Shown: positions 34,101 to 50,309 of the stretch, piece by piece
Layout of the letters: every line of letters starts with the position of its first letter
How positions within the stretch are numbered: the first letter of the stretch is position 1
Assembly (NCBI GenBank): GCA_028030915.1
Contig: GCA_028030915.1_4867.1
Strand: one strand, 5' to 3'
Origin: a phage
Length of the DNA: 64,000 nucleotides
Made by a program: the position numbers and the translations under genes
The notes under the pieces: generated by a model
Databases searched by the model: none
What the model saw: only the letters and a program-made list of their open reading frames with translations
What the model was told of the DNA's origin: nothing

Positions 34101-34146
34101 GGTACCCTACTCCCGTTGGGAGTAGGGTTTACCTTTTATTTTTTTC
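34101..34146. terminator. bidirectional intrinsic terminator (CCCTACTCCC-GTT-GGGAGTAGGG, then T-run)
   Basis: Inverted repeat between convergent genes 33866..34075 (+) and 34136..35398 (-). Confidence 0.6.
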
Positions 34147-35398
34147 GTGCTTTGTAGCGATGCATTTCAACAAATGGCTTACCCCAAGCCCCGAAAGGCC
34201 CGACGATTGCCTGCACGTCGTTTACCAAATTCTGGTTATACCAACGCGCGTTCCCCAACAAAAAGTTTTCCCGGTCGAAGAATGTGGTATTAAAGACCCA
34301 CTCCCCTTCTTCCCAGGTCGGCCAGTACCCTACACATTTACCAACACGGTTAAAGATAGGACCTAGCGTCTTCTTCCCATCTGGGTCAGTCGGGTCTTTT
34401 AAATAGAACCGGCCCCAGATAGCGTTGTGGCTTATTCCGTGAATCTCTTTTTCGAGATACGGGTTGTCTATCGTAAAGATAAACGAGGATTCGTGCGTCA
34501 GCAACGCTTTTAACGTTTCTGAGTTACGAATACGTTGAACGGACGTAGGCGTACTTAAATCACCTACACCGATGGCGTCCCAATCGTAATAGCGACGGGT
34601 TTCCAATACAATCTTCGCCACGCTAAGGTTTGGCAGACTCAGCATAATCGCACGGTCGCTGAAATAGCCCTGCGGCGGCAACCAATGCAGAATACCTCCG
34701 ATGACGAACCCAACGGTTTTCCCTGTAATGGAATCGGGTAAGGTCAACATTAACGAAGAATAGTAATCTCGCGTAGTATCGAGTTTGTTCATCGTTAAAC
34801 CGGATATGGGGTAGGTCTTTACTTTACCGATATTTGCCATCACCAGACAGCCAATGTCTGGCGTATTGGCACGCCGCACGATATTACCAGCGCCGGTTAA
34901 GCGAACGCCCACTGGGTCAGATTGGTGAGGTACCCACTGGCCGTTGATGTTGTACAGCACCCCAGTACGGTATTTCTCTTTCCACTCATCGTCGCAGACT
35001 ACAACAACGTCGTGTGCATCATCAGGATTGAAGTCCTGAGTGTAGTGGTACCCAGGAGGGCACAGGTGCGTTTCCACGGGCACATCTGCATTAATAGACT
35101 GGTAATGTGCCTCAACGAATTCGAGCTTCGGTAGGCCCTTCCCAAGCGTTGGAATCGCGATTCCTGACTTGGTGTTTAACCAATCTTGCAACGTGTCCGT
35201 ACGGTTTTGTAAATCAGCCAGGTGATACTGGCTATAGAAGGTATATTCAGCACCTAGTGCTTCTAGTCCTACTTCGAAAAAGTGGTAGTTAGCACAAAGG
35301 GTATTTAAGGGCTGCGTGACATCGATGGTTCCCCAAGTTCGGGTGTCTCGAGAGAAGCCAAAAGCGCTGTCGGCCCGCACTTGATAAGCAGTAGTCAC
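34136..35398 (-). CDS. hypothetical protein (420 aa), possibly structural
   Basis: Long ORF adjacent to, and divergent from, the fiber gene block. Confidence 0.5.
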   Translation of the reverse strand: MTTAYQVRADSAFGFSRDTRTWGTIDVTQPLNTLCANYHFFEVGLEALGAEYTFYSQYHLADLQNRTDTLQDWLNTKSGIAIPTLGKGLPKLEFVEAHYQSINADVPVETHLCPPGYHYTQDFNPDDAHDVVVVCDDEWKEKYRTGVLYNINGQWVPHQSDPVGVRLTGAGNIVRRANTPDIGCLVMANIGKVKTYPISGLTMNKLDTTRDYYSSLMLTLPDSITGKTVGFVIGGILHWLPPQGYFSDRAIMLSLPNLSVAKIVLETRRYYDWDAIGVGDLSTPTSVQRIRNSETLKALLTHESSFIFTIDNPYLEKEIHGISHNAIWGRFYLKDPTDPDGKKTLGPIFNRVGKCVGYWPTWEEGEWVFNTTFFDRENFLLGNARWYNQNLVNDVQAIVGPFGAWGKPFVEMHRYKARKK

Positions 35399-35465: not shown

Positions 35466-38400
35466 ATGGCTGTCGTCCCTGACCCGCACTATCAAGAACC
35501 GGGGAATATGCAGACCGGTGAAGCGGTAACGCCGATCGGTACTAAGTACCGGATGCTGTTCCCCGCACACGCCCCCTTTTATACCACATCCCTGGTGGTC
35601 AAGAGTGGCGGCAAGAAATTAACATTAGGTGATGATTACGTCATCACCCATGCGTACGTTACGGGCATGGCACGCACTGGCCATGTTTGTCATGGTGGTG
35701 TGTGGATTACCAACCCGAAATATCAGAGTGGCTTTACACTCGATTACCACGCAATTGGCATCGGTGAAGCCACCGCAGAAATGATCGCCGCAGAACGAGA
35801 AGCGAATAAAGATCGCTATCCCGTAGACTGCCAATGGGATAACGTTATTGGGGATTTATATTTCCCACCGGTCGATATTAAGTTCGATTGGGAAAACTGG
35901 CGTGGCGAATCCGAGTTGATGGAAGCCATTGTTGCGGTTGGTGCTAAGCTCGGTGAAGCGATCAGTCGTGTTGACCCGATTGCTCGTAACACGTTAGACC
36001 TTCAATATCGCGCCGGCGTCACGCTTATCACATCCGAGCAGTATGCGACGTACGACGGTACTGGCGGCTACACCTATAACGCGTCACGTCGTCGTTATTC
36101 GTTATCTTACCAGAACACGACATTCGATGCGTATTCGTTAGCGGCAAAATACCGTTTACCGAGCATTCCACCGGAAACAACGTTGAACCCAGGCGAGTTG
36201 ATCGATTGGATGCTCTGTTACGCAAACGGTGGGACAAGTATCCTGCGTCTTCAGTTGAAGCAACGCGCGATTTATCTTACCTTAACGACGGCGATTGGTT
36301 CTGGTTCGTCTAATTACAGCTATACGTTGACGACTGGCCTGACCGATACCGAGTTGGCGGGTGATATTGAGCTTAGCGTGGTCAGACGCGAAGGTAACGG
36401 CGTTTACGACATTACCGTTAAAACAAGCAAGCAAACCGTTAACTACAGCTTTAACGTTGACAACCCACCGAGCGAATTTGCACCAGGGTATCAGAAAACT
36501 GATGTCGCAAAATGGTTGAAGTTTAAATCGGGCGTCAACCTAAACTGGTGGGCAGGTGAGAACGATTACGTCCAGATTCGTTCATTACCAGGCGCACCGG
36601 CACCTGACGTTAACAACGACGTGTACCAGCTGCTGGTAAAATATCACCAGATTGTCGATAAGCTGTACCGTGATGCACCAGCACATACGCACGTGCCGCG
36701 CAAGGATAACCCACATCGCGATTCGTGGGGCGCAATCCGTGCTTTGGAGAATAACGGTATTGCTTCGGACGCGACACTGGTATACGGAAAAACGCAACCG
36801 CAGCTGACAGATTACGTTAACAATCTGTTGCCGAAACTGTCAACGCTGGCGAATAAGCTTTTACGTTTACCGGCGGCTGCACAGTCTATCAACGGCACTT
36901 TCGGTATGAAGCCTGGCCTGACTTCGATAACGTCAGCAGTGGGTACCGATGAGTCTGAAGGCGTGGGTGCACAATTCACGGTTGACCCGAGGGTTATCCG
37001 TTTTATTGGCCGCGATTCGCAAACCGTTAACGCCGGGAATAACCCGATTACATGGCAAGGTGGGGCTAACCAACTCATCCTTTATCCGGATTCCCGTGGA
37101 TTGGAGTTCAACGGTAAGAAACTATTGGACCCTACTACGGTCGGACCGTACCTGCCGGGTAACGAGTCAGGTGGTGATGGACTGTTTTACGGAACATCCA
37201 CAGCTACTGTAACCATTAACGGCAACGGTATTCAGTCTGTTCCGTTCATTTGTACTTTTGTTCCACCGGAGTCCGACGACCTTGGCCTGATGGCTGTCCG
37301 TTTGTTGGCTACTGAATTCGGTGATCGTGAGGACTTGGCCGCAACGCCGGCACTCATCAAGAAATTGGATCAGCAGTTTACGGGCAAGTTGGTTGCCGTT
37401 AAATCGTACATCAACGACATGCCACTGACGAGTTCTATTTACATCGATAAAACTAACTTCGGCTTATCGAACGTACAGAACATCCCAGATGTGCAATTGC
37501 CGATTTCCCCGCTCCAACGAGCTGAGCTGGACAAGTATGCAGTCGTCGGTCACACACACACTCCTGCTGCGCTCGGGATTAAGCGTGCAACAACGACGGA
37601 GTTCGGTTTAGTACAGTTCGGCACCGCGGTTGACGATGCCACGCTGGCATTAGACGGCGGTGAGGTCATCCGACAGGCGGACGCTATCACAGAGATAGAG
37701 AAGGTTGCGAAGACAGTCGACTCTGGTGCTTCAATCAACATTATTCGTTACGGTTTACCCGGCACGGATATCATTGAGAACGGCATCACTTACACCGACT
37801 GGATGGTTACTATTAAAGCGAACGATTATTTCGTTGGTCGCGAGTACAAAGTACCTCTCTCCACATTTAACTTGGCGGAGCTATTCCCAGCGACGCACGA
37901 AGATGCTGAGTTTGGCGTGTATGTTGACGCGGCGGGCGATGACGGCAAGTACATTATCTACGAAAATCCAAACACGGCAGAAACTGAGACGATGACCAAA
38001 ATAGGTTCCATCATCACCAGTGAAACCGGTGTGGTTTTTGTAGAAATCCGCAACGTGACGCGTTTAGGTGAGTTCCGTGAATTAGGCGAGCACATCGAGG
38101 ATGATAACGCCCATATTCGTCGGGGCATGACGCAAGCTGAATTCGGATTTACTTACGGTACGGGCGGGCCTGTGTGGTCCACGGGTGCACCGGGTACAAA
38201 ACGTATAGATGCCGATTGGCGTTACGCGCAGGCTAGCAGCTATACGCCTATGTTGAAAGCGGACTACGATCCGGCTGCTGATAAATGGACGTTTAAAACA
38301 ACCAGTTTATCTGTAACCGATTATCGTTTTGTCCACAACACATTCCCGATGTTCCAGAATAACGGCATTACCGCGACGTGGACACCTTTAACCGCAACAG

Positions 38401-39179
38401 CGGACAGTGTGCTAGAAACGGTAATTGGCTGTTGCCATCACTCGGCCACGTTCATGCACCGTATTTCTGTACTCGTCGCACGCACCGCAGGGCGTATTAC
38501 CACTCCAGGCGGCGTGAGCACGTATGCGGGAATCGCGGTTAACTACGGACGTGCTGCACAGGTTGTTATTGGCTTGAACGGCGTTACTGGTTCCGGCCAT
38601 GACTGGACGGCACTTAATCCATCGGTGCGTTTCAGCCACGCGCGAACAGCGGACGGTATTTCGTTCGTGGGAACGATTAACATCGATTCCAAAACGATTA
38701 ACTTTGAGCTGACGCTAACCGCGACAACAAAGACGCTGAAATACACCTTGCAGTCGACCGGCGAGTCGTGGACTGAGGATTTGTCTACCCGTCTCCGTCC
38801 TGACTATATCGACTTGACGAAACTGATTACCGATCCGAGTACGCCGATTTATCACGGCGTGGGTGGTTTGTTTAGTTCCGACACAGAAGCGCGTTTGACT
38901 TACGCTAACCTGAACACGATGCCGACAAAGAATCGTTATTACGCCACGTTCCTTGACTATGCGATTAACTATTCCGGCTTAAACCGCGCAAGATTCTTTA
39001 CTGGCGTGGTGGATGCAGGTTCAACGATTAATGAGATGAACAGCGCGATGTGCAACTATTCATACAGTTCGTTCCGACCAGTGGATACAGGTAAAATTCC
39101 ACCGGCGGCGCACCCATCCAAGATGATGACGTTCAATCCGAAAAACACGTCAGGTCGAACACTTATTATTCGTGATTAA
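35466..39179 (+). CDS. tail fiber protein (1237 aa)
   Basis: AAAGGAG RBS; fiber-type His motifs (APAHTHVPRKDNPHRD; VVGHTHTPAALGIKRATTTEFGLVQFG); N-terminal domain shared with the next three proteins. Confidence 0.7.
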   Translation: MAVVPDPHYQEPGNMQTGEAVTPIGTKYRMLFPAHAPFYTTSLVVKSGGKKLTLGDDYVITHAYVTGMARTGHVCHGGVWITNPKYQSGFTLDYHAIGIGEATAEMIAAEREANKDRYPVDCQWDNVIGDLYFPPVDIKFDWENWRGESELMEAIVAVGAKLGEAISRVDPIARNTLDLQYRAGVTLITSEQYATYDGTGGYTYNASRRRYSLSYQNTTFDAYSLAAKYRLPSIPPETTLNPGELIDWMLCYANGGTSILRLQLKQRAIYLTLTTAIGSGSSNYSYTLTTGLTDTELAGDIELSVVRREGNGVYDITVKTSKQTVNYSFNVDNPPSEFAPGYQKTDVAKWLKFKSGVNLNWWAGENDYVQIRSLPGAPAPDVNNDVYQLLVKYHQIVDKLYRDAPAHTHVPRKDNPHRDSWGAIRALENNGIASDATLVYGKTQPQLTDYVNNLLPKLSTLANKLLRLPAAAQSINGTFGMKPGLTSITSAVGTDESEGVGAQFTVDPRVIRFIGRDSQTVNAGNNPITWQGGANQLILYPDSRGLEFNGKKLLDPTTVGPYLPGNESGGDGLFYGTSTATVTINGNGIQSVPFICTFVPPESDDLGLMAVRLLATEFGDREDLAATPALIKKLDQQFTGKLVAVKSYINDMPLTSSIYIDKTNFGLSNVQNIPDVQLPISPLQRAELDKYAVVGHTHTPAALGIKRATTTEFGLVQFGTAVDDATLALDGGEVIRQADAITEIEKVAKTVDSGASINIIRYGLPGTDIIENGITYTDWMVTIKANDYFVGREYKVPLSTFNLAELFPATHEDAEFGVYVDAAGDDGKYIIYENPNTAETETMTKIGSIITSETGVVFVEIRNVTRLGEFRELGEHIEDDNAHIRRGMTQAEFGFTYGTGGPVWSTGAPGTKRIDADWRYAQASSYTPMLKADYDPAADKWTFKTTSLSVTDYRFVHNTFPMFQNNGITATWTPLTATADSVLETVIGCCHHSATFMHRISVLVARTAGRITTPGGVSTYAGIAVNYGRAAQVVIGLNGVTGSGHDWTALNPSVRFSHARTADGISFVGTINIDSKTINFELTLTATTKTLKYTLQSTGESWTEDLSTRLRPDYIDLTKLITDPSTPIYHGVGGLFSSDTEARLTYANLNTMPTKNRYYATFLDYAINYSGLNRARFFTGVVDAGSTINEMNSAMCNYSYSSFRPVDTGKIPPAAHPSKMMTFNPKNTSGRTLIIRD

Positions 39180-39191
39180 GGAGATTTTTGA

Positions 39192-42100
39192 ATGAAAACG
39201 TATCCTTACGATCCTCGGGGTGTAAATCCTGAGTGTCACTTCATCGAGGAACGTATCATCGACTCCGACAATCCTAACGATCGGGTGGTGATGCTAGATC
39301 ATCGCCCGTTTTTCGAAGGATTGGTGGTAAGGCTCGCCGGCTCGTCCATACCGCTTACCCGCGGGACGGACTATGAGCTGGAGTATGCTTTAACACCGTT
39401 GGACGACTCGGTGACGACCCCGGTGTTTTGCGGGGTGCATCTTATTAACCCTAAACTGCGTGGTGCGGTGGTCTTTGAAGGCCAGATGCTCGGGGGTACG
39501 TTTTACAGTGGTTTGATTGAGATGTTGGATGAGCTAATTAAGGCACTCAACAATCCAACGGCTGCAGATTGGCTGCTTTTAGGTAATCGACCTTCCCTGT
39601 ACCCAGCCACCCCTGCAGCGGTAGCTTGGTCAGACATGCTGAATAAAAAGTATGTTGCCTCTGCAGTGCATGATGTGGAGTTAGATGCCGGGGCGGCCAA
39701 CGAGCAGATTCGTGAAAAGCTTACTGAGCTGAAAGATGCGGTTTTGGGCTTAGGAACTGAAATCGCCACATTTAACTACCCCGGACACATTGCGTCGACT
39801 AACCCTCATGGGACTACCGCGGCGCAGGCCGGTGCGCATCCTGTCAACCTGAAAACGCCAGATACTTTCCTGGCGTATGGAAAGACGTTGCGTCAGTTAA
39901 CCAGCGAGGTCCGTGCACTGGGTCTGCAACAATCGGATATCGACAAGTACATTTCTAAATGGGTATCGAAAGAATCCAGAGGGGTGTTTAATGCGACGAT
40001 ATCCGGTACTCGTGCCCTGTTCCGTTCTCCTGCTGGTGAATCCGAAATTGTGTTCTCTGCTGAGGCATTCACTCTTAAATCTAATGGCTCTGTTGTGTTG
40101 GCGTGTGGGTATGCCGACACTACTGGAACCGTCCGGTTTATGGAGTGGAAAGCAGGCATCAATACATTACGTATTGAGTCGACTGGCAGTGCCTTGGGGA
40201 TGGATAAGCTGACGCTTAATGGTACGACGTTACTGACCACAACCGCTCTCATGGGCTATCAACAAGACCCTGGTACCGGCGGTGGTACCGTTGACCCGGA
40301 TGACAACAAACTGTACATTAGCGGGGTGAACGGCATTACTTTCACGGGTAAAGGGTCAAAAGCCGATCCTGTCACCGGGAAGGTCACAGCCAAACCCGCG
40401 ACGACCTCTGAACCAGGCGTTGTGACGCTGACTGATAAGCCGAGCGATGTAGTCAAAGGGCAAGCAGCCACCCCGTCGGCGCTTTTGCCGTATGAGGGCG
40501 ACCTGTCTTCGTACGTCAGGAAGACAACGCTGCTGAATAACCAGCCGATGAACACTGGTAGTCGAACGCTGACGAAAAAGGATTTGGGTTTAGACTTGGC
40601 TGATAACACAGCCGACGTCGATAAACCACTTTCTGACGCGTTGGCAGAAGCAGTTACCGGTCTTAGCGATAAAGGCCATCATCACAACTTCGCTGATTTA
40701 CAGATCCCAACGGCTTCTCAAACTGTGCCAGGCATCGCGCGATACTCTACCAACTTAAACGGCTTGGCGGATAATCGTGGCGTTACCCCGAACGTTCTGA
40801 ACGAATTGTCAAAACGTTTAGACGTGGTTGCAGCCGCGTTAGCAAACGCGAAAGAGGATTCCGTGGCCGACTTCGCCGCTGTGCGTGGTAAGACATGGAC
40901 TGTGGGGTCTACGCGTACTACCCTCGCTGTAACAGATTTGAACTATTTCTATCTGTTAAATGGTACACGTAAAGAGGGGACGGTATCCGGCTCGATAGAC
41001 CTGCAAACCACACCGATGTTCCAGTGGTTCTCTCCGGATAACCGTATGGAAAGAACGTGGCAAAACGCGGTAATTAATACCGGTGCCGGTATTGATTTTA
41101 GTGGGTTCGAGGTTGCTGTCCCGGAAACAAACTACGGTGCGCAGATTGGTTTAACGACAACCGGAATGGGTGATTTGTCAGTCGTTAACCTCTTGGCGAA
41201 AACGTGGGTTCGTTGCGACTCTGGTAAGCTGCGGATTTGGGTTCGTGGCGGTGGTGCTGTTTCTGTTTATCTGGACGGTGAAATTATCGGTGCGGGTATT
41301 ACAGAAGCGGGGTATCTGGAGGCGACTGTCAAAGAGGGGTGGAAGCAACACTGCTTAGCATTCCGTGCAGAATGTAACGATAGCGCTAAAGCAGCCGCAA
41401 TTCGTTTCACAATTTACGACGGTGACTTTGCGGTTGGGGCCTCGGATAAAAACACCAAAGTTGCCCGCCTGCAGGAGTTTGTTAAGACGCCGAACGGTTT
41501 AAGGCATTACCTCTATGTGAACATGATAACCGATGCGTTATATTCGCGCGCCGAACCTATTGTGGACACGGAAGGTATTAACTTGGAACGCGGCTATATC
41601 GGCCACATTGATGTCCCTGACGCGGGATTGGTTGCAGGCACGACTTACGAGTTTGAAACGACGTTTGATTTTGGCATGGCGTCCGAACTTAAACGGCACT
41701 TCGAAACACGTCTAGCACACGGGGTGAGTAACACCGACTGGTCGTTGACGGATAACCCGAAAATGCTGCCGTTGAATAAGGTTGATCCATTACCTAAACA
41801 ATGGCTGTATGCGTATCCAACTAACCCGTCTGTTTCTGGGGATAACCTCGTTCGTTTAGATCGTGGGTTATTTGATTATAAATTCGTAAGTGCCACCTCG
41901 CTCAGGATTCTTCTTGCGGCGGTTGTTTCCACTGAAAACGCGTCCCCGTATTGCTGGTTTACACCAAGCAACCCGAAAGAAAATGGAATGGCGACATTCG
42001 AGGGTTCGGTGGTAATCGACACTGATTATCCTGAAGTCCCAAAAACCTCGGACGTCGAAGTTTCATTAAACTTCATGGCCCCTTCTGCTGATGGGAAAGG

Positions 42101-43322
42101 TAAAACCAGAGTCCTGCGGTGGAGTAACTCCCGCACCAGTTTAAACTGCGGCTTTATTGCTGCGCCGTACGATAAACCAACCGGAAGAATTGCCACCACA
42201 CAATCCAGCGTTACTAATACGCTGGTTGATGCTCCTCGTGTAATCAAGAGCGTGGATGTTCAGTCGCCTGACTGTTTAGACTATCTCCCGGTTTCAATCG
42301 CTAGCGAGTTCGCAGCCATTGGTTCGCGCTGGCTTATTCGTTATCGCTATATTGTTGATACGCAGATACTGCGAATATCGTCGATTAGTAAGATAGGCGG
42401 CCAGGCTTCGGCGACTGTTCGTGAGATAGAGTACGACATTCCGTTTGACGCGATTGATTATTTTAAAGGCGGCGCTTTATCGATTAGTGTTACTGGCATC
42501 GAAACTGGTGAAGGCGTCACAATCAACCACGGTTTGATGGACCCTTCCACAACAGAAGTAGATTTAAATCGTTTCCATTATCTACGCTCGCTATTTGAGT
42601 CGTATATTGAGCGTTCTCCGGACAGCCAGTCTTCTGGGCATGAGGAGATGTCGATATCAACCGTCGCGTTCGCGAACTTTGGAGATAACGTCGATAACCC
42701 GGTTACGGAATACATCACGATGTCTGCTGCAAGTGAGGGTTATCCGGAACTTGCACCGAACGGTAAACTCCCCGCACCGTTTTACAAAGGGCTGCAGAAA
42801 CGTGGTGCTCCGCTACTTGAGTCGGCTCCTGCAGACTATACGTCTAACGGTGGTGAATGGAAGTACGGCTTTATGCGGGCTTATCGCCCAACTCAAAATG
42901 AGCGTTTTGTGTCGGTAAATGGGACAATGCTCTCTAACTACCCAGGATATATCATCGTGGGTAGTGAGAAAATTCCGGGTAATGTTATACCTTTCAGTGC
43001 ATCGACAACAGCTGTTCAGATATCTGGGACTCTTGCCCGCACGAAACCGATGCAGCCAATTCACATCGTGTTCGTGCCTCCGGAAGGTTCTGTGCCGCCG
43101 CTGCAAGCGAAGTTCACTATTAATGGCGTGGGCAGTAGTGGTAATCCGATGTTCGTGATTACTGAAACGACACCGGTGGAACTTCGCACTGGTGGCGAGA
43201 CGATTCTCATTGAGAAGCGTAATCCATTCCATATCCCCACCAGGACATGGGATTGGATTTTACAAACGTTGGATACTGAACGTAGAAACGAAGGCAACAA
43301 CTCGGGTGAGTGGGCCTCTTAG
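39192..43322 (+). CDS. tail fiber protein (1376 aa)
   Basis: AAGGAG RBS; GHHHNFADLQIPTASQTVPGIARYST fiber motif; shared N-terminal domain (PFFEGLVVRL...GTDYELEY). Confidence 0.7.
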   Translation: MKTYPYDPRGVNPECHFIEERIIDSDNPNDRVVMLDHRPFFEGLVVRLAGSSIPLTRGTDYELEYALTPLDDSVTTPVFCGVHLINPKLRGAVVFEGQMLGGTFYSGLIEMLDELIKALNNPTAADWLLLGNRPSLYPATPAAVAWSDMLNKKYVASAVHDVELDAGAANEQIREKLTELKDAVLGLGTEIATFNYPGHIASTNPHGTTAAQAGAHPVNLKTPDTFLAYGKTLRQLTSEVRALGLQQSDIDKYISKWVSKESRGVFNATISGTRALFRSPAGESEIVFSAEAFTLKSNGSVVLACGYADTTGTVRFMEWKAGINTLRIESTGSALGMDKLTLNGTTLLTTTALMGYQQDPGTGGGTVDPDDNKLYISGVNGITFTGKGSKADPVTGKVTAKPATTSEPGVVTLTDKPSDVVKGQAATPSALLPYEGDLSSYVRKTTLLNNQPMNTGSRTLTKKDLGLDLADNTADVDKPLSDALAEAVTGLSDKGHHHNFADLQIPTASQTVPGIARYSTNLNGLADNRGVTPNVLNELSKRLDVVAAALANAKEDSVADFAAVRGKTWTVGSTRTTLAVTDLNYFYLLNGTRKEGTVSGSIDLQTTPMFQWFSPDNRMERTWQNAVINTGAGIDFSGFEVAVPETNYGAQIGLTTTGMGDLSVVNLLAKTWVRCDSGKLRIWVRGGGAVSVYLDGEIIGAGITEAGYLEATVKEGWKQHCLAFRAECNDSAKAAAIRFTIYDGDFAVGASDKNTKVARLQEFVKTPNGLRHYLYVNMITDALYSRAEPIVDTEGINLERGYIGHIDVPDAGLVAGTTYEFETTFDFGMASELKRHFETRLAHGVSNTDWSLTDNPKMLPLNKVDPLPKQWLYAYPTNPSVSGDNLVRLDRGLFDYKFVSATSLRILLAAVVSTENASPYCWFTPSNPKENGMATFEGSVVIDTDYPEVPKTSDVEVSLNFMAPSADGKGKTRVLRWSNSRTSLNCGFIAAPYDKPTGRIATTQSSVTNTLVDAPRVIKSVDVQSPDCLDYLPVSIASEFAAIGSRWLIRYRYIVDTQILRISSISKIGGQASATVREIEYDIPFDAIDYFKGGALSISVTGIETGEGVTINHGLMDPSTTEVDLNRFHYLRSLFESYIERSPDSQSSGHEEMSISTVAFANFGDNVDNPVTEYITMSAASEGYPELAPNGKLPAPFYKGLQKRGAPLLESAPADYTSNGGEWKYGFMRAYRPTQNERFVSVNGTMLSNYPGYIIVGSEKIPGNVIPFSASTTAVQISGTLARTKPMQPIHIVFVPPEGSVPPLQAKFTINGVGSSGNPMFVITETTPVELRTGGETILIEKRNPFHIPTRTWDWILQTLDTERRNEGNNSGEWAS

Positions 43323-43357
43323 GACGGACTGCCTACGGGCGGGTAGTCCGTAGGTAA

Positions 43358-43397
43358 ACCGCCCTTCCGTTATTGGGAGGGCGGTCTCCGTTTTATT
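43358..43397 (+). terminator. intrinsic terminator/attenuator between fiber genes (ACCGCCCT...AGGGCGGT, then T-run)
   Basis: Inverted repeat followed by CTCCGTTTTATT; preceded by a second hairpin at about 43323-43354. Confidence 0.45.
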
Positions 43398-43417
43398 ACA
43401 GATTAGGAGTGTTTGCA

Positions 43418-46400
43418 ATGCCGAGAGAAGATGCGGCGCAGTTTAACGGTACCCTCAGTACCGCTACTTACCCGAACCGTTATTCGACGGTCATTCCCGT
43501 CGAAGCACCGTTCTATCGCATCGGGTTAACGTTAACCGTTACCGATAAAGCAACCGGAACCAAACGCAAGTTAATAGAAGGTCTTGATTATTTCTTAGGA
43601 CATTACTTCCAGGAATTAGCCGAGGCTGAGAACGATGCAATATACGGCAGCATAATGCTGCTGAACGCCACAGAGGTAGAATACGAGTTGTTGTCGGTTG
43701 GTCGACAGTATCGCATCCCTGCTTCTGAAATCGGCAAGTATCTGGTTAAGACGGATATGAAAGACCCGCGCAACTGCGATTGGTCTGAGCTGATGAAATA
43801 TCCACCGATTATCTCGCCAATCGACCCGCCAAAAGATCTCGAAGAAGCGATTCTTCGCGATGAAATCGTAAAGGCGTTGGAAGATATCCGTCTGGGTATT
43901 TTAGAGCGCGCCCACGAACTGGATGAGGCATTTGCCGAAGTTACCGATTTGATTTATCAGAACGGTAAGCAGGTGTTTGATGACGAAATGTATCAACACC
44001 ACCTGATTAAAAATGCACATGGTTACACCTGCGGTGACATTGGCGCACTCCCTGTGCTCGGTAAGGCCGTAGATGCGACTAAGGCATTCGGACGTACCCT
44101 GGCAGAGCTAGTGACGTTAATGTCTACCAGTGGCATCCAACAGAAACACGTTGACCTGCTTCTGGATAATACCCTGGGTGATTTACTGGGCCGTATGCGT
44201 GTTCTGAATAACGACGCGATTACGTTCCAAACAACGTCTGGTCACGTTATCAGCATGAAAGGTGAGAAGTTCATCATCACCTCGACAAAACCGCTGGTAT
44301 TAAAAGCTGACCAGGATAACAACGAACCGGGTATCGCTACGGAGTTCAGTGCTGGTCTGAACACGCTTTGGGTTCACTCGGGTAAAGCAGGTGACAAGTG
44401 GGGCGCTTATGATGCAGGTGTGCTTGCACCTGTGTATAACAGCGTGTATCTCGTTACACCGGATATGGTTAAGATGTACTTGACCTCGGTGAAGATACTT
44501 CCAGCAAACGCCTACTTCAAGTCCAGCGACACGTTGAAGATTTACGGCTCTGGTAAAGAAACAAACAAAGTTTACATGAATGCGGAGCTGCCTGCAGCAA
44601 CCACAACTGTGCAGGGTTTGTTTGCGATTACTAACCTCTCGGCATCCGCTGCAGCGTCCACAGCGATTTCCCAAAAAGCTGTTACTGACTTGAAGAACAA
44701 ACTCGACGGATATGTGGACGACACGTATACGGTCAATGGTAAAGGGTTTGTATTAGATTCAAACGGGCAGATGCATCTGACCTTAACCGCGGCAGATTTC
44801 GGTATTGAGAAAATGGACAATACCGGACCGTTAGAAAAGCCTGTTACTAACGCATTGCGTACCGTGCTATCAGGCAAAGCGTTTACATCGCACACCCACA
44901 CCATTGCAGATCTCGATAACGTGCCGTACGCATCCACGTCTGTTACAGGTTTGGCTAAACTGTGGGATGCAATCGACACTACCTCGGATAAGATGGTCAC
45001 TTCGCGCCAAGGCTTCTTGCTTGAACAGAAGATTGACACGCTGAATGACAAGATTGGTACGTTATTACCGGCGTGGACTGTCGGCGGATCATCGTACGGC
45101 AACAATAACTTCTTGCCTATACCAGTCCAGGGGAACTACGAAGGGTATACCAAAAACCAAACCTGGCAGAAAGGTTTGGCGCGTTACGAGTCTGGTAAGG
45201 TTTACTCGCTCCGTAATGGTTCTAACGGGAATCCACCTGGTGACTGGGCTATCTATTACGCTTACGCAGATGTAGCCGCGGATAACACGCTGACGAACAT
45301 GCAGCAGACGTCCGTACGTTACCGCCCCGCTGGAATGTCGGCGTATCCTGGGGTGAATCTGGTTGCTATTGTGATTACCGGTACAGATGCAATGATCTGC
45401 TTAGGCAGTGACGGTGCGTATTACCTGGTCATCTTTGACGGCACCATTGACCATGCAAAACATCATCGTGTTGTTAAAGTTCAGTTGGGCGATTACCGAA
45501 ATGGTAACGCGGCCGGTGTGATTACAACCGCTCCATGGGTTGCCGATCCATCAACAAACGATTTGATCGTTTGCAACGAGCGGGTTTATCTGCTCCGTAC
45601 TGTCCTTACCTCCGGTGACTATTTCGTGAGTATGCGTAGCATCGCACTTGACGAACTTAATCTGGGTGGTAGCAACACGTTTGTGGCGGATGTGTTAACA
45701 GGCGGGATGTTAACGTCGGGAGATAATATCTATTTGCGTCAGGGTCAGAAACGTTCTGATACAGATGTGTTGGTAGCGCCAGTAACACAAATCTACGCAG
45801 ACGCATCGGCGAAGTGGAATAGTGCGCGAAATTTCGTCCATGGTCCGGAATGTAATCACGCGATTGGTGTGGATGGGCTGAACTTTCGTGTTGGTTTAAC
45901 TCCAACGGTTTGGTTTGCTTCTACTACAGGGCAAACTATTAACTTTAAACAATGGGTGTCAAGCTTTGTTGTTGATTGTAGTTCAATGACGATAACGCTG
46001 GAAGGTGCTGATCGATTCCCTATTGTGGCCGATCTTACCACGGTTCGTTATAACGGTGGTGCTGAGATTGGGATTCCGAGCCGGAAATGGGGCGAAGGTC
46101 AAGCTAATAACCGAACCTTTGCAACATCGCAAGACAAGTATATCGTTTCGCAAGGACATGCAGGCGATCGCGACCTGATGCCTTACGTCACGATTACCAC
46201 GTTAGATGACGGTGTGAGTTGGTACGAGTACCTGTCGTGCGACTACAACTTCACTGCCAGAAGTTTTAGTGCGGTAATGTTAAACCAAGGTCGTGGTTCT
46301 ATCTACGAGCTGGGTATGGCGTATCCGCTGACTCTGGGAGCGAATTCCAGACTTATCTGGTTGTCACAGCCGCGTACCCGTTTGGCAATTGAAGTTGAGT

Positions 46401-48601
46401 TTGATCCGAACACCACTTACTCAGGTAAGGCGGGGTACGGCCCAACTAACAATCGTCGTGTGGTGGATTCTACCACGTACGAGAATCTGTCGCAGATGTG
46501 CCACATTGTTACACCGGCGTCGCCTGGTACAGAGTTAAACGGCTGGTATTGCACAGGACCAGAAACATTCCCTTACCACAACGTTTCTGGCACTTTCACG
46601 ATTCATGCCGATCGGTTGACGCTGTCACAAGCTGAATGGGATAAGATGAAGCAGATGATCATCGACGGAGCACCGGCAGGCGCTGCGAATGGTTATGCTT
46701 CGGAATTTATCCTTGCCGCAAATAACGCAGGAAAGGCATTGTTCTCCGTTTGGTTCATCGGCATTGGTACGGCCACACCGCTCACGTTAGCACAAGTAGC
46801 ATGTACGCGTACTGTGAACAACGTTAACGTGTTGGATATCTACTACTTTACACTGAAACCAACAATCAGCAACGGGCAGGTAACATTCCCGGCAGCGATA
46901 TTGGCATTGTTTGACTTCTATAACAACCTCGACTATGGCTTGAACTATGCTACGTTGGGTGAGATAACGGGAGGAAAAACACGCCGGCCGGGACAACCTA
47001 CACTGGTGTCAGTAGATGGTACTCAGTTCGGGTTGTATCTTCCACACACGTTAACCTTGCGCCAAATTGGCGACTTGGGTGCGCTTAACTACGGCGTTGG
47101 TCTTACGCTGTCTAATGGTACCTGGACGCGTTCTTCTGCTCCACACGGCATTGGACGCATGGCACCATCACACACTCCAGTCAGCCCAGCTTATCTGGCT
47201 CATCGTGATCAGGTGATGCTACACAACTCATCTCTCGACTACGTCTATTGTGGTGGTATCGCAATGTCGTCGAGTGATTTTGTCGCGGCTCCTAATTTTA
47301 GTGGCCCGACTGAATCGGTCGTCATTGCTGGTGTGGAAACAGCCGAAGGTTGGCTGGTATATGTGACTGAGGAAGTTGACCTGCGTTTCGGCTCGAGCAC
47401 TTATAAACTGCCTACGTGGTATATTGACCTCAGCGCAGCATTTCCAACAAACCATCAGAACCGGACATTCTACCTGCACGCCAAGGTAGAAAATGGTACA
47501 CCGAAGTACGTAATGGACGTGATTCAACATCCAGACACTGAAACGGAACTCTATATCGGGTATGTTAAAACGGGCTCGTCGCGAGTCGTCGAGACTAACG
47601 TCGAACATGCTAAGCGATTAGGGGCGGTGAAACAACTGTTGGAACATGCGGCGGTTGAGAATAAGCATGATGTGGAGGTGGGAAGGGATGCAGCAACGGG
47701 CAGACTGGCACCATTGCGTAAAGAAGCGATGGGTCCTTTGTCGATCGATGCTACGAAAGGCTATCTGGATAGTCAGTTGCTTTATACCGTATCTGACGCA
47801 CAGCGTCGCGGTAAAGCGATGGTCTCCAAACGTTTCGAAGGCTTGAAAACTTTGCCGGCGTTTACTCAGGCAAACAAGTCGGGGGCGTTTTGGAAACATC
47901 CTACAACAATTGCGACGGTAACGGCCGATGAGAACGGTGAAGCGGCATCGTTGGGAATGGAGTGGGTAGGTATTCCAACGCCCGCTTTCTCACCGACCTC
48001 AACGAACTTGATGGTGGTGGTGCAAAGTAAATTCGTCGTCCCAGGTACACCGGGAGTAGAAACGACCTTTAATGTCCACGTTGCCCCATGGGAGGCGGTG
48101 GATGGCTTTTTCTACAACGTCGAGGCGGAAGGTACGGATGTTAACATTGACGAAAATCCAGAAGTGTTATTGCCGTCACCACATACCGTGCACCACAAAC
48201 AGCACTCTCTGCCAGCAGGCGTGCCGTGCACCTTTACATTTGTCGCGGCGGTAAGTTCTTCAGCGCTCGAAACAGCCAACCAGCATATTTGCTCTTGGCT
48301 TTTCACGGAAGCGGGGGGACTACCAATCACCACCGATCTTTCGGATAGTAAGATTCAAATCTTACCACAGCCGGGAGAAACCTATGGCACTCCAGTTGTT
48401 CTGAACAGTCGTAGCTATACGTTTACGAATGTGGCAGGTGCAATCCCGGTTGTTACCACGGGCGCTCAGGGTTTATTCCCACCACCGATCGTGGCGTGGG
48501 ATGGCGATGATCTTACGTTAACGATTGCGCACGATTGGGTGAACGAGAGAGGACGTCAGCAGCCTGATATTATCCAGGTCAATCTTATGTTCCGTACCTA
48601 A
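43418..48601 (+). CDS. tail fiber protein (1728 aa from the ATG with AGGAG RBS)
   Basis: FTSHTHTIADLDNVPYASTSVTGLAKL fiber motif; shared N-terminal domain (APFYRIGLTLTV...GLDYFLGHY); the track ORF begins upstream at 43373 inside the terminator hairpin. Confidence 0.7.
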   Translation: MPREDAAQFNGTLSTATYPNRYSTVIPVEAPFYRIGLTLTVTDKATGTKRKLIEGLDYFLGHYFQELAEAENDAIYGSIMLLNATEVEYELLSVGRQYRIPASEIGKYLVKTDMKDPRNCDWSELMKYPPIISPIDPPKDLEEAILRDEIVKALEDIRLGILERAHELDEAFAEVTDLIYQNGKQVFDDEMYQHHLIKNAHGYTCGDIGALPVLGKAVDATKAFGRTLAELVTLMSTSGIQQKHVDLLLDNTLGDLLGRMRVLNNDAITFQTTSGHVISMKGEKFIITSTKPLVLKADQDNNEPGIATEFSAGLNTLWVHSGKAGDKWGAYDAGVLAPVYNSVYLVTPDMVKMYLTSVKILPANAYFKSSDTLKIYGSGKETNKVYMNAELPAATTTVQGLFAITNLSASAAASTAISQKAVTDLKNKLDGYVDDTYTVNGKGFVLDSNGQMHLTLTAADFGIEKMDNTGPLEKPVTNALRTVLSGKAFTSHTHTIADLDNVPYASTSVTGLAKLWDAIDTTSDKMVTSRQGFLLEQKIDTLNDKIGTLLPAWTVGGSSYGNNNFLPIPVQGNYEGYTKNQTWQKGLARYESGKVYSLRNGSNGNPPGDWAIYYAYADVAADNTLTNMQQTSVRYRPAGMSAYPGVNLVAIVITGTDAMICLGSDGAYYLVIFDGTIDHAKHHRVVKVQLGDYRNGNAAGVITTAPWVADPSTNDLIVCNERVYLLRTVLTSGDYFVSMRSIALDELNLGGSNTFVADVLTGGMLTSGDNIYLRQGQKRSDTDVLVAPVTQIYADASAKWNSARNFVHGPECNHAIGVDGLNFRVGLTPTVWFASTTGQTINFKQWVSSFVVDCSSMTITLEGADRFPIVADLTTVRYNGGAEIGIPSRKWGEGQANNRTFATSQDKYIVSQGHAGDRDLMPYVTITTLDDGVSWYEYLSCDYNFTARSFSAVMLNQGRGSIYELGMAYPLTLGANSRLIWLSQPRTRLAIEVEFDPNTTYSGKAGYGPTNNRRVVDSTTYENLSQMCHIVTPASPGTELNGWYCTGPETFPYHNVSGTFTIHADRLTLSQAEWDKMKQMIIDGAPAGAANGYASEFILAANNAGKALFSVWFIGIGTATPLTLAQVACTRTVNNVNVLDIYYFTLKPTISNGQVTFPAAILALFDFYNNLDYGLNYATLGEITGGKTRRPGQPTLVSVDGTQFGLYLPHTLTLRQIGDLGALNYGVGLTLSNGTWTRSSAPHGIGRMAPSHTPVSPAYLAHRDQVMLHNSSLDYVYCGGIAMSSSDFVAAPNFSGPTESVVIAGVETAEGWLVYVTEEVDLRFGSSTYKLPTWYIDLSAAFPTNHQNRTFYLHAKVENGTPKYVMDVIQHPDTETELYIGYVKTGSSRVVETNVEHAKRLGAVKQLLEHAAVENKHDVEVGRDAATGRLAPLRKEAMGPLSIDATKGYLDSQLLYTVSDAQRRGKAMVSKRFEGLKTLPAFTQANKSGAFWKHPTTIATVTADENGEAASLGMEWVGIPTPAFSPTSTNLMVVVQSKFVVPGTPGVETTFNVHVAPWEAVDGFFYNVEAEGTDVNIDENPEVLLPSPHTVHHKQHSLPAGVPCTFTFVAAVSSSALETANQHICSWLFTEAGGLPITTDLSDSKIQILPQPGETYGTPVVLNSRSYTFTNVAGAIPVVTTGAQGLFPPPIVAWDGDDLTLTIAHDWVNERGRQQPDIIQVNLMFRT

Positions 48602-48648
48602 CAGATAGCGCTATGGGGCAAGGAAGCCCCAATCAAAGGAGTTTGGCA

Positions 48649-49851
48649 ATGGCCGAAATCATTCATCAGTACCCGCTCGACCTTACCGGGACATTAACGT
48701 CGAACGCCGTTACACGGCGTATTACGTTAGGTTCTGGTAAAGTTAACCGGGCTTTTGCATTTCCTGACGGAGCTTTCTACGCGGATACCTTCCGCTTGGC
48801 AGCTGCGAATAAACCAGGTGTCTACCCGTACAAACGCGGCACAGACTACGAACTGATTTTTGCACATACTGCATATCAGAAAATGACCAAGAACCGCGAA
48901 GTGGTCATGGGTGTGGTGGTAACTAACTCGGCCATTCCTACTGATATCGAGGTCTCTGCGCAAGTCGTTGGTGGTTTTCAGTCTGCGAACGTCGAAGGCA
49001 TCCGACAAGCGATTGCGTCGTTGAAAATTGAAGACCGCGTGGTGGACTTCAAGGATCTTCGAAACGTACCCGATACGTTCCCGTCCGCCCCGACGTATAA
49101 AGACCTTGGCGATATCTACGGTTTTGAGTATATCATTACCGTACTCGCGGGGATTAAAGATGCGATTAACTCCGGCTCTGCAGTACAGCTGGAAGAAATT
49201 AAAGGTATTCTGGATGGTCTGAAAAACGACTTCCTCGACGCCTTAAATACCCACATCAACGCCGAAGGTAACGTACACAATCTCGACATTCATCAGGTTA
49301 ATGGCCTGACGGAGACGGAGATTCGTGCCCTGATTCAAAGTGTACAGACTGCCATTGACGCCACTATCAGAGATATCGGCGACTTAAGAGCAGCAGACAC
49401 GGCATTGGGGCAACGCATCGATGCAATTGTGGCTTCGTTAGCCGCGTGGAACGACCAGCTTAACGTGGTTGCTCAAAATTACCAGAAAATGTCGTTAGCA
49501 TTAGCTAACCTTAATTCTCTGGTGTTGCAATTACAGAAGATGGTTAACGATCTTCAGTCTGCACTGAATGAAACAAATCAGCGTGTCACGGATCTTGAGA
49601 ATCAGGGCAAAGACTTCCAACAGCAAATTGATAACCTGCAAGGACAAATCAACAGTCTTAAAACTCAGGTTGTAAACAACACCAACGCAATTTCGCAGGC
49701 AAACCAGAATCTGGCGAACCATGCGGCTGCGGATAACCCACACCCGAATTACCTCCATAAACAGTATGGCGGTGTTGTGCAGGCTGCTGTTCACGTCAAC
49801 AACAACCTCACCTCGCGCGACGATGTTCAAGCTGAAGCGGGTACTAAGTAA
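48649..49851 (+). CDS. short tail fiber-like protein with coiled-coil (about 400 aa)
   Basis: AAGGAG RBS at the internal Met; shared N-terminal domain (GAFYADTFRL...GTDYELIFAHT); heptad-like Q/N/L-rich segment; NPHPNYLHK motif near the C-terminus. Confidence 0.6.
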   Translation: MAEIIHQYPLDLTGTLTSNAVTRRITLGSGKVNRAFAFPDGAFYADTFRLAAANKPGVYPYKRGTDYELIFAHTAYQKMTKNREVVMGVVVTNSAIPTDIEVSAQVVGGFQSANVEGIRQAIASLKIEDRVVDFKDLRNVPDTFPSAPTYKDLGDIYGFEYIITVLAGIKDAINSGSAVQLEEIKGILDGLKNDFLDALNTHINAEGNVHNLDIHQVNGLTETEIRALIQSVQTAIDATIRDIGDLRAADTALGQRIDAIVASLAAWNDQLNVVAQNYQKMSLALANLNSLVLQLQKMVNDLQSALNETNQRVTDLENQGKDFQQQIDNLQGQINSLKTQVVNNTNAISQANQNLANHAAADNPHPNYLHKQYGGVVQAAVHVNNNLTSRDDVQAEAGTK

Positions 49852-49860
49852 CTTGTTTAC

Positions 49861-49905
49861 GAGCCGGACTATGTTTATGGACATAGTCCGCTCGTTCTAC
49901 TTTTT
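49861..49905 (+). terminator. intrinsic terminator/attenuator (CGGACTATGT...ACATAGTCCG, then T-run)
   Basis: 10-bp inverted repeat followed by CTACTTTTT, between the last fiber gene and the Cys-rich peptide genes. Confidence 0.45.
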
Positions 49906-49916
49906 AAGGAAGCGTA

Positions 49917-50309
49917 ATGGCGATATCTATTAAAGACGTCAGAAACCGCGTCCAGATAGTCGAAGCTAACATGGCGACAGGCCCCCGCATCGAGGCGCAA
50001 GTGGCCTCTAAAGCCCATAATGCGGCAGACCGATTTGGGGGTTGGACGAAAGCACAGCTAGATTGCGGCGGGACATGTTCTTGGACATGCTCTAACGGTT
50101 GCTCGCACGGCTGTTCGAGCTGTTCAGGAAGCTGTTCTGCTTCTTGTATCGGTAGCTGTTCTTCGACGTGTGGCGGTAACTGTTCTGGTTGCTCTGGTTG
50201 TTCTGGTGGTTGCAGTAGTAGCTGTACCGGTAACTGCACAGGTGGTTGCGGTGGCTCATGTTCTTCCAGTTGTTCCGGGGCCTGCTCCGGCGGCTGTTCA
50301 GGTCGCTAA
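49917..50309 (+). CDS. Cys-rich repeat protein A (130 aa): ~49-aa leader-like N-terminus plus a CxxxC repeat tail with about 21 Cys; candidate RiPP precursor
   Basis: ATG with AAGGA RBS; N-terminus MAISIKDVRNRV is paralogous to the next two ORFs; tail DCGGTCSWTCSNGCSHGCSSCSGSC...CSGACSGGCSGR. Confidence 0.6.
   Translation: MAISIKDVRNRVQIVEANMATGPRIEAQVASKAHNAADRFGGWTKAQLDCGGTCSWTCSNGCSHGCSSCSGSCSASCIGSCSSTCGGNCSGCSGCSGGCSSSCTGNCTGGCGGSCSSSCSGACSGGCSGR
50064..50306 (+). repeat. in-frame period-12-nt coding repeat (Cys-Ser/Gly-x-x) within protein A
   Basis: Reiterated TGC/TGT-containing units (e.g. tgttctggttgctctggttgttctggtggttgc); both alternative frames are also open, as expected for a low-complexity repeat. 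Confidence 0.6.

Follow-up and report, generated by a model that had tools for sequence, protein, structure and literature searches.

Four consecutive genes of an SPN3US-like jumbo phage encode paralogous tail-fibre proteins that begin with one common N-terminal module. The reading that best explains the data, and which we consider probable, is that this module supplies a shared docking and oligomerisation N-domain through which the paralogs would form a mixed hexameric fibre base under gp171, the product of the adjoining gene. The genes lie in a stretch of 64,000 nucleotides of phage DNA, which was analysed as a whole and is referred to here as the window. Paralogous virion fibre proteins with a gp131-like N-terminus are already known from the literature of 2012-2017, and their structural basis was provided in 2026. 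The additions made here are the placing of gp167 in the family, the split of the family into type I and type II, and a map of the domains in all four proteins.

The locus (14.4 kb) is 98% identical over its whole length to SPLA1a and the SPFM phages at the nucleotide level, and 96% identical to SPN3US. On this comparison the source of the window is assigned as an SPN3US-like Seoulvirus, a phiKZ-related jumbo phage of Salmonella, and as an isolate distinct from SPN3US. The four ORFs are identified by homology as SPN3US gp170, gp169, gp168 and gp167, and are assigned to a tail-fibre or baseplate-periphery module (Table 1); the SPN3US proteins are 95-99% identical to those of the window and have the same order, lengths and neighbours. 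The first two ORFs agree in length with the original description, while the sizes given there for the third and fourth (about 1728 and 400 aa) hold approximately, the third being refined to 1727 aa. The most likely start of gp168 is ATG 43418, which is preferred because AGGAG lies 8 nt upstream of it and the TTG start assigned mechanically, at 43373, sits inside a hairpin. For gp167, ATG 48649 is the most likely start, since homology to relatives begins there and the relatives are annotated from that codon.

Table 1. Positions of the genes and other features of the fibre locus in the window.
Feature	Position	Strand	Basis
gp171 homolog	34136..35398	-	full-length BLASTP to phiKZ gp130, E 3e-16, 21% identity; phrog_3337 match
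gp170 homolog, 1237 aa, type-I (gp131-like) fibre paralog	35466..39179	+	PHROG and HMM matches; SPN3US family C
gp169 homolog, 1376 aa, type-I fibre paralog	39192..43322	+	PHROG, HMM, BLASTP
gp169 two-allele cassette, ~aa 870-1170 (~300 aa)	41800..42700	+	identity comparison with Lh1B and SaP7
Double-hairpin terminator-like element, gp169/gp168 gap	43320..43397	+	dG -50.2 kcal/mol, z -7.9
gp168 homolog, 1727 aa, type-I fibre paralog	43418..48601	+	
gp167 homolog, 400 aa, type-II (phiKZ gp133-135-like) paralog	48649..49851	+	
Terminator-like hairpin (49859-49895) plus U-run, array end	49859..49906	+	z -4.9

The paralog array, composed of four late structural genes, runs head to tail directly downstream of gp171 and is divergently transcribed from it. 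Synteny comparison finds the same divergent layout of array and gp130 homolog in phiKZ, RP12, Goslar, pVa-21, CR5 and Erwinia phages. By its sequence match, gp171 is the homolog of phiKZ gp130, a baseplate-periphery protein beneath which the fibres dock in phiKZ; in SPN3US it is an essential tail protein (PMC5105663). Sigma-70-type promoters are not enriched across the region, with 5 found against 18.8 expected, which is consistent with transcription by the phage RNA polymerase. A promoter in the gap from the internal hairpin to gp168 was considered and rejected, as only ~30 nt are available there, ribosome-binding site included.

As far as sequence can tell, each of the four proteins opens with one common unit, made up of a gp131-like N-domain (~140 aa), an alpha-helix placed from the alignment, and an H-x(5-7)-N-P/A/V-H motif. 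The unit is assigned as homologous to the N-terminal module of phiKZ gp131, gp133, gp134 and gp135. An HMM was built from the first 230 aa of these four proteins, RP12 gp72 and gp73, and Goslar gp25 and gp29, with no window protein included. It matches gp167 (E 5e-34), gp169 (2.2e-22), gp168 (3.7e-19) and gp170 (5.5e-17), and, of the 369 stop-to-stop segments in the window that are 60 aa or longer, it matches no others. All four proteins also match phrog_2163 (E 3.8e-14, 8e-23, 5.5e-85 and 1.5e-108). Direct BLASTP is weaker than the profile, giving 5e-24 for gp169-gp168, 2e-8 for gp169-gp167 and 3e-4 for gp170-gp168 over the N-terminus, and no match between gp170 and gp167. The shared N-terminal segment that had been proposed from the sequence is thus borne out far beyond chance, and the alignment extends further than was first seen; gp169 and gp168 can be aligned across ~560 aa, and the same region is found in gp170 after an insertion of ~205-230 aa. 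The motifs by which the segment had been described, PF(Y/F) and G-x-DY-x-L, are present (PFY/PFF/PFY/AFY and GDDYVI/GTDYEL/GLDYFL/GTDYEL), except that gp167 and gp170 deviate at one position each. The motifs are aligned in register with the phiKZ, Goslar and RP12 proteins, as are the histidine motifs HIASTNPH (gp169), HHLIKNAH (gp168), HINAEGNVH (gp167) and HTHVPRKDNPH (gp170), the last of which is displaced by the insert. The module is widespread: its family comprises 2997 representative proteins of 166-1901 aa, in which it always extends from residue 1 to ~220, and some of the 78 representatives scanned carry distal Peptidase_S74, Collar, Phage_fiber_2 or PKD domains. Searches of PDB sequences gave no meaningful match with the single proteins and no chain with a profile of the four N-termini, which indicates that the PDB sequences searched do not include the phiKZ fibre N-domain models.

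Beyond the common unit the layouts differ. In gp170, the N-domain (aa 1-165) is followed by the hypervariable insert (~aa 170-400), H-x7-NPH (aa 407-417), a shared shaft (~aa 405-726) with HTH at aa 696, a segment that we call module X (aa 788-894) and a unique C-terminal part. N-domain, helix and histidine motif fill aa 1-215 of both gp169 (H-x6-NPH) and gp168 (H-x6-NAH), and in both the shared shaft reaches to ~aa 550, with HHH at aa 496 and HTH at aa 492, respectively. The distal part of gp169 (aa 560-1376) is divergent, whereas that of gp168 consists of an all-beta region with a putative propeller (aa 558-1400), module X (aa 1282-1417), a flexible helical linker (~aa 1403-1468) and a beta domain that ends at aa 1727. 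In gp167, the common unit (aa 1-212, with H-x6-NVH) leads into a coiled coil (~aa 215-360), a second H-x5-NPH (aa 357-365) and a short C-terminus.

His-x-His motifs had been ascribed to all four proteins; they occur in three (gp170 aa 407 and 696, gp169 aa 496, gp168 aa 492), and gp167 has none. The gp168 site at ~aa 492 hardly varies across 50 gp168 orthologs, and the stretch around it matches actinophage minor tail proteins. The long paralogs resemble the T4-type trimeric HxH fibres (gp37, gp12) and Phage_fiber_2 in their beta-rich shaft, where a conserved HxH precedes an A-(S/T)-x4-G-(I/L/V) strand motif. They differ in having one conserved shaft site per paralog rather than a series, and metal binding at these sites is putative. 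The Pfam scan found no match to the Phage_fiber_2 (PF03406) repeat model in the four window proteins. At E <= 0.1 it gave nothing for them save PTR (PF12789; E 0.038), which falls short of the cut-off of that family. Together, the Pfam and NCBIfam scans assign no family to the four proteins, the matches of gp167 being coiled-coil noise. The DUF7941 (PF25613) model has no match in them either, with Goslar gp22 as positive control (2.6e-52).

The family divides into two subtypes, by a neighbour-joining tree (bootstrap 88/100) and in agreement with the patterns of HMM scores. Type I contains gp168, gp169, gp170, phiKZ gp131, Goslar gp29 and RP12 gp72, and type II contains gp167, phiKZ gp133-135, Goslar gp25 and RP12 gp73; at least one member of each type is present in every relative examined. 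Of type II, gp167 is assigned as a fourth member of the family; it consists of the N-domain and ~150 aa of coiled coil with no globular tip. It is also the best conserved of the four, with 88% identity to its counterpart in Erwinia phage pEa_SNUABM_29 against 56-60% for the others. By these properties gp167 is not one of several receptor-binding variants, the role that had been foreseen for it.

All four proteins have been detected by mass spectrometry in SPN3US virions (PMC5105663; PMC5694885), so that the possibility of only one of them being a virion protein, named earlier as a way to overturn the multi-fibre proposal, does not apply. In SPN3US, gp168, gp169 and gp170 form "paralog family C", which is phiKZ gp131-like, tail-associated and regarded as a set of baseplate or tail-fibre candidates (Thomas et al., 2016, PMC5105663; Ali et al., 2017, PMC5694885). 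As published, the family has these three members, and gp167 is found in virions but outside it. The three are missing from a tailless SPN3US mutant (PMC5694885; PMC5105663). Spectral counts per mass in SPN3US are 1.00 for gp170, 1.41 for gp169, 1.08 for gp168 and 1.90 for gp167. Per unit mass, gp167 is 1.5-2.4 times as abundant as the long paralogs across four preparations, and its ratio to them by spectral counts is ~1.6:1, not 3:1.

Terminator-like hairpins had been noticed in the gp169/gp168 gap and at the array end, and both are real and conserved with compensatory changes. The internal element consists of two hairpins, at 43330-43356 and 43358-43385, the second having a stem of 12 bp followed by CUCCGUUUUAUU. 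It is kept in phages of four genera, with compensatory changes in 5 of 19 pairs, and is absent from CR5 and Phobos. The hairpin at the array end occupies the same place with different stem sequences in pEa29, phiEaH2, Caitlin and CR5. The further suggestion that the hairpins tune the stoichiometry of the fibres is unsupported, since the SPN3US counts per mass show no decrease across them and CR5 and Phobos lack the internal one. They are predicted to be conserved intrinsic terminators, one internal and one at the end of the operon, and the internal one would have to leak for gp168 and gp167 to be expressed.

The distal regions diverge after the common N-terminus, as originally proposed, in the three long paralogs, each of which has a conserved proximal half and a variable distal one. 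In gp169, the distal half holds a cassette with two alleles: the window protein is 44-80% identical to Lh1B and SaP7 within it and 96-100% in the flanks, and the identity between Lh1B and SaP7 within it is 84-100%. The alleles ignore host genus, as SaP7 (Salmonella) and Lh1B (E. coli) share one. The AF2 model of gp169 aa 560-1376 has low confidence (pLDDT 63.4), because the alignment holds only ~10 informative sequences. Weak ConA-like lectin and PA14 matches were obtained for gp169. Among the 120 of 356 protein matches of gp169 that were listed, ~110 are 48%-identical proteins in separate "90% clusters". Hypervariability of gp169, or a diversity-generating mechanism, was considered and rejected as a clustering artefact, since the ~110 share a median pairwise identity of 98%. 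The distal region of gp168 is predicted from its structural model to contain a beta-propeller. Foldseek matches to the whole gp168 model have low TM-scores, owing to the many domains in the query, and the propeller match is generic. If the prediction holds, gp168 would have a distal beta-propeller in common with phiKZ gp131, another type-I member, though the distal parts of the window paralogs have no detectable sequence similarity to phiKZ.

The closest structural guide to the locus is phiKZ, which shares the homologous N-domain, helix and H..NPH module and has the gp130 homolog as the divergent upstream neighbour (Sycheva et al., 2012; PMC13250141). In the 2026 cryo-EM atlas of phiKZ, six gp131-like N-domains and a six-helix bundle are docked beneath gp130, and the N-domains of several paralogs are fitted into one hetero-hexameric fibre base of three type I and three type II chains (PMC13250141). 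[quoted passage not shown] The fibre region consists of AlphaFold models fitted into 4.4-4.6 A maps and low-pass-filtered density, and is not an atomic model (PMC13250141). The hexameric assembly is known from this fitting in phiKZ alone. The inventories also differ: phiKZ has one long type I protein (gp131, 771 aa) and three short type II proteins, and the window phage has three long type I proteins (1237-1727 aa) and one short type II protein. In Goslar, type I gp29 and type II gp25 both adjoin the gp130 homolog gp30, with gp26-gp28 between them (bioRxiv 10.64898/2026.04.21.720040). Two of these intervening Goslar genes have matches in the window paralogs, gp26 in the distal part of gp168 and gp28 in module X. 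The distal part that Goslar encodes in separate genes is fused to the N-module in the window phage. The type II proteins also differ in their ends, as Goslar gp25 closes with a Peptidase_S74 domain and gp167 stops just beyond its coiled coil.

By analogy with the phiKZ atlas, six N-domains and their helices would pack into one hexameric base, with the six-helix bundle docking under gp171, and the shared segment would then be both the oligomerisation unit and the docking unit. Each base would contain three gp167 and three type-I chains, because each relative examined has both types and phiKZ was modelled as 3+3. The higher abundance of gp167 per unit mass in SPN3US virions supports this reading, while the ratio of ~1.6:1 in place of 3:1 counts against the composition. 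The type-I chains may continue as a trimeric shaft with the conserved HxH site in register, and end in different, fast-evolving beta-rich domains, for which binding or processing of surface carbohydrate is the most likely role; gp167 would be a conserved coiled-coil strut. A bolder version takes three type-I plus three type-II N-domains as a base rule of the chimalliviruses, which the clade of SPN3US, Erwinia and Vibrio phages would have solved in the inverse way to phiKZ. A gp167 homotrimer would then combine with a gp168/gp169/gp170 heterotrimer into a single branched fibre of three specificities, in place of three separate fibres; its shafts would stay in register, with HxH at aa 492, at aa 496 and, minus the insert, at aa 696, before splaying into three receptor-binding heads. 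We regard this version as rather doubtful.

The main alternative to a mixed base is that the four proteins are independent homo-oligomeric fibres, each with its own site and receptor, on a multi-fibre virion of broad host range in which hairpins set the amounts. A common adaptor with divergent distal parts is real, the N-module is joined to many different distal domains across ~3000 proteins, and phiKZ has two kinds of fibre site among its 12. Seoulvirus isolates come from Salmonella, E. coli, Proteus and Erwinia, and the SPFM phages had lytic ranges of 81-100% on 68 Salmonella strains (PMC6614189). Such independence is nevertheless unlikely. The absence of a globular tip in gp167, the member conserved best, sits badly with four receptors, virion abundances in SPN3US do not drop across the internal hairpin, and the gp169 alleles do not track host genus. 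The set of four genes was fixed before the split from Vibrio phage pVa-21 and its number has been constant, unlike the usual swappable host-range cassettes. We judge an obligate, co-assembled complex to be likelier than a set of independent or optional fibres, because the paralog N-domains of phiKZ were fitted into one mixed hexamer and none of phiKZ gp131-135 tolerates transposon insertion, which argues that none is dispensable. Of the original idea of one attachment domain with several specificities, what stands is the common N-module homologous to the phiKZ docking domain, and the independent fibres are the less likely part.

The opposite possibility is that all four proteins are architectural struts or braces, with receptor-binding proteins encoded elsewhere, such as DUF7941-type filaments or other fibre genes. 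Much of the baseplate periphery in phiKZ and Goslar is still without assigned proteins, DUF7941 filaments with carbohydrate-binding domains have been proposed as host-recognition elements in Goslar (bioRxiv 10.64898/2026.04.21.720040), and the generic nature of the gp168 propeller match would also suit it. We think a purely architectural role improbable: divergence concentrated distally together with the local mosaic cassette of gp169 is the pattern expected of host-contacting proteins, N-module relatives have C-terminal domains of the kind usual in fibres and spikes (Peptidase_S74, Collar, Phage_fiber_2), the phiKZ gp131 propeller was placed at the fibre end, and putative fibre-forming structural proteins of Seoulvirus are reported to be under positive selection. 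A chance or compositional resemblance among the N-termini of unrelated large structural proteins, to which the poor BLASTP scores of gp170 with gp167 and gp168 might point, is refuted by the independent HMM (E 5e-34 to 5.5e-17, nothing else in the window) and the one PHROG common to all four, and the motifs in register with phiKZ, Goslar and RP12 also count against it; its probability is negligible. The co-assembled base thus remains the reading that we prefer.

The work adds little that is new, and its leads are the domain map, the assignment of gp167 with the split into two types, and the gp169 cassette. Little is understood of how nucleus-forming jumbo phages recognise their hosts, and such phages are therapeutic candidates. 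The locus is the most likely seat of host specificity in Seoulvirus, and the two-allele cassette of ~300 aa in gp169 offers a defined unit for experimental swapping.

In a nucleotide search, 23 complete phage genomes align with 88% or more of the 14.4-kb region that carries the four-gene array; they include those of Salmonella phage SPLA1a (98.3% identity), the SPFM phages (98.1%) and SPN3US (96.3%), all of the phiKZ-related genus Seoulvirus. In SPN3US numbering the array ORFs are gp170, gp169, gp168 and gp167. Just upstream of gp170 is gp171, a full-length homolog of phiKZ gp130 (E 3e-16); further upstream are gp172 and then the baseplate assembly protein gp173. The TTG at 43373, taken as the gp168 start by mechanical ORF calling, was rejected: it lies inside a hairpin, and ATG 43418 has an AGGAG and the annotation of relatives in its favor.

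Features of the array and its flank, in window positions
Feature	Position	Strand	Remarks
gp171 homolog	34136-35398	-	just upstream of gp170
gp170 homolog	35466-39179	+	1237 aa ORF
module X in gp170	37827-38147	+	BLASTP and profile
gp169 homolog	39192-43322	+	1376 aa ORF
internal double-hairpin element	43320-43395	+	outer stem around two hairpins; dG -50.2 kcal/mol; z -7.9
gp168 homolog	start ATG 43418	+	1727 aa; AGGAG 8 nt upstream; start annotated so in relatives
module X in gp168	47261-47668	+	BLASTP and profile
gp167 homolog	start ATG 48649 (MAEIIHQYPLD)	+	400 aa; homology begins here; also the annotated start
terminal hairpin	49859-49895	+	array end; U-run after it; z -4.9

All four proteins match phrog_2163. 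They share an N-module, which consists of a phiKZ gp131-like N-domain of ~140 aa, a helix and an H-x(5-7)-N-P/A/V-H motif. A profile built without the window proteins, from the first 230 aa of phiKZ gp131/133/134/135, RP12 gp72/73 and Goslar gp25/29, matches gp167 (E 5e-34), gp169 (2.2e-22), gp168 (3.7e-19) and gp170 (5.5e-17), and none of the other stop-to-stop segments in the 64-kb window (369 in total, each 60 aa or longer). The original prediction of four paralogs with a common N-terminal segment is thereby confirmed. On alignment, the motifs that it named line up with the phiKZ, Goslar and RP12 sequences, and so do an N-terminal YP-x-D-x-x-G and a subsequent helix and H-x(5-7)-NPH; gp167 matches phiKZ gp135 over its N-terminal 216 aa (E 1e-14). 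The array encodes four paralogs with an N-module homologous to phiKZ fibre N-domains, next to a gp130 homolog. The divergent arrangement of gp130 homolog and fibre array is also kept in phiKZ, RP12, Goslar, Vibrio phage pVa-21, CR5 and Erwinia phages.

Neighbour-joining on the N-domain gives two groups (bootstrap 88/100). Type I comprises phiKZ gp131, Goslar gp29, RP12 gp72 and gp168/169/170, and type II phiKZ gp133-135, Goslar gp25, RP12 gp73 and gp167; the type I triplication is older than the split from pVa-21. By sequence, gp167 is assigned as the fourth family member, of type II. Its N-module leads into a ~150-aa coiled coil, after which come another H..NPH motif and a short C-terminal end; the protein is evenly conserved (80-88% identity to Erwinia phages). 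The wider family is large, with 2997 representatives of 50%-identity clusters matching the N-module profile at E <= 1e-3, of which 1847 reach E <= 1e-10. The module begins at about residue 1 in all 150 matches listed, in carriers of 166-1901 aa. No Pfam model covers it in any of the 78 representatives scanned, which have Peptidase_S74 (9), Phage_fiber_2 (4), Collar (3) and PKD (1) domains. Identity as DUF7941 filament proteins was rejected, since none of the four matches the model that Goslar gp22 matches at 2.6e-52.

Similarity extends past the N-terminal segment: gp169 and gp168 align over ~560 aa (E 5e-24), and this shaft recurs in gp170 beyond a ~205-230-aa insert, which places the gp170 HxH at aa 696 in register with those at aa 496 of gp169 and aa 492 of gp168. 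HxH fibre motifs had been expected in all four proteins; they occur in these three (gp170 has another at aa 407) and are absent from gp167. A single HxH per ~1300 residues is not remarkable by itself. The site at aa ~492 is nearly invariant across 50 gp168 orthologs, and the stretch around it has matches in minor tail proteins encoded by Arthrobacter, Gordonia and Tsukamurella phages. A further ~100-aa segment, module X, is common to gp170 (aa 788-894) and gp168 (aa 1282-1417; BLASTP 3e-9, profile 6e-16). In both proteins, KRLG/TRLG comes next, then a helix and then H-x(6)-N-(A/K)-H, an order that echoes that of N-domain, helix and H..NPH at the N-terminus. This region may serve as a further junction or node of the fibre. 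In Goslar, module X is a separate small protein, gp28 (169 aa; 14107-14616 of its record), and most of the gp168 distal part (window 45089-47570) is likewise a separate gene, gp26 (867 aa, lacking the N-module; 15119-17722; E 3e-29); several Goslar genes thus correspond to one fused protein here. In pVa-21, two small genes with a tail fibre assembly annotation (17069-17464 and 18916-19344 of its record) are interspersed among the array genes; they have no counterpart in the window's array.

The distal regions diverge, as predicted. Against Erwinia phages, identity in the long paralogs is 56-90% over the proximal ~550 aa and mostly 15-55% farther out; the gp168 distal region is probably of beta-propeller type. 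The least conserved segment of the locus is the gp170 insert (aa ~170-400, ~230 aa; window 35974-36665), between N-module and H..NPH: its identity to Erwinia phages is 16-28% (over aa 200-400), and the flanks reach 77-90%. It may form an additional, exposed domain close to the baseplate. In the SPN3US species, residues ~870-1170 of gp169 exist as two alleles, 44-80% identical in 25-column blocks with flanks at 96-100%, and phages isolated on different hosts, Lh1B on E. coli and SaP7 on Salmonella, have one allele in common. Among the matches listed are also ~110 gp169 homologs (P0063-P0173) of 1392-1401 aa, with 48% identity to gp169, a median identity of 98% among themselves and variation concentrated in the distal half. 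Their many separate "90% clusters" are, given that median, a clustering artefact. Their contigs reach ~220-227 kb, and many bear the label of a Salmonella enterica or E. coli isolate; the source looks like a different jumbo phage that often gets assembled along with isolates.

Both predicted hairpins are present and kept in relatives, which have an equivalent of the terminal one at the array end. Within the internal element, the second hairpin (43358-43385; 12 bp, 8 G-C) is followed by CUCCGUUUUAUU. The element is kept in Seoulvirus, Erskinevirus, Machinavirus and Wellingtonvirus, with compensatory changes in 5 of 19 pairs, and is missing in CR5 and Phobos, where the spacer is just 3-4 nt. The gap between it and gp168 is only ~30 nt and contains the ribosome-binding site, so expression of gp168 and gp167 probably needs read-through. 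The element may attenuate transcription. The proposal that the hairpins tune fibre stoichiometry is unsupported, since virion abundance does not fall across the internal element and virion copy numbers are set by assembly. Another strong hairpin (34104-34128; 11 bp, dG -24 kcal/mol, z -5.3), followed by U-rich sequence on the + strand, lies between convergent gp172 (+) and gp171 (-) and looks like a terminator where the two genes end. Beyond the terminal hairpin are two tandem paralogous ORFs (49917-50309 and 50320-50724, +; 130 and 134 aa) matching phrog_6085, a family without known function. The corresponding interval has one annotated gene, gp166, in SPN3US and two ORFs of the window sizes in Lh1B; from annotation, copy number appears to vary within the genus.

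Location in the virion and tail is taken from studies of near-identical or homologous proteins. Both gp168 and gp171 are placed in the tail and have relatives in phiKZ, the gp131 paralog family for gp168 and gp130 for gp171 (Thomas et al., 2016; PMC5105663). gp168, gp169 and gp170 form "paralog family C", baseplate/tail-fibre candidates that were detected in virions and that a tailless mutant lacks (Ali et al., 2017; PMC5694885). The supplementary table of that study, which puts no family label on gp167, lists all four proteins in the SPN3US virion, in agreement with the prediction of several fibre paralogs rather than one; spectral counts per kDa are 1.90 for gp167, 1.41 for gp169, 1.08 for gp168 and 1.00 for gp170. 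In phiKZ, the 2026 structural atlas (PMC13250141) places twelve fibre sites under gp130, each with six gp131-like N-domains above which or beside which a six-helix bundle is seen; the fit has three gp131 chains and one each of gp133, gp134 and gp135, and the gp131 propeller is at the distal end.

By analogy with these homologs, a hexameric N-domain base would lie under the gp130 homolog. Each base here would comprise three gp167 chains, acting as structural struts, and three type I chains, whose shafts would bear differing carbohydrate-directed heads. Counts per mass are 1.5-2.4-fold higher for gp167 in four preparations, which points in the direction of a 3:1:1:1 ratio and does not establish it. 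The alternative, that the paralogs form independent, optional fibres, is less likely, given the fixed four-gene set, the nature of gp167 and the essentiality data from phiKZ, where a transposon screen gave zero insertions in any of gp131-135. The original interpretation, one attachment domain with several receptor specificities, is partly supported. The feature itself is already known, as paralog family C of SPN3US and the gp131 family of phiKZ; added here are gp167 as a fourth, type II member, a domain map that includes the gp169 cassette, and evidence for hairpin conservation.
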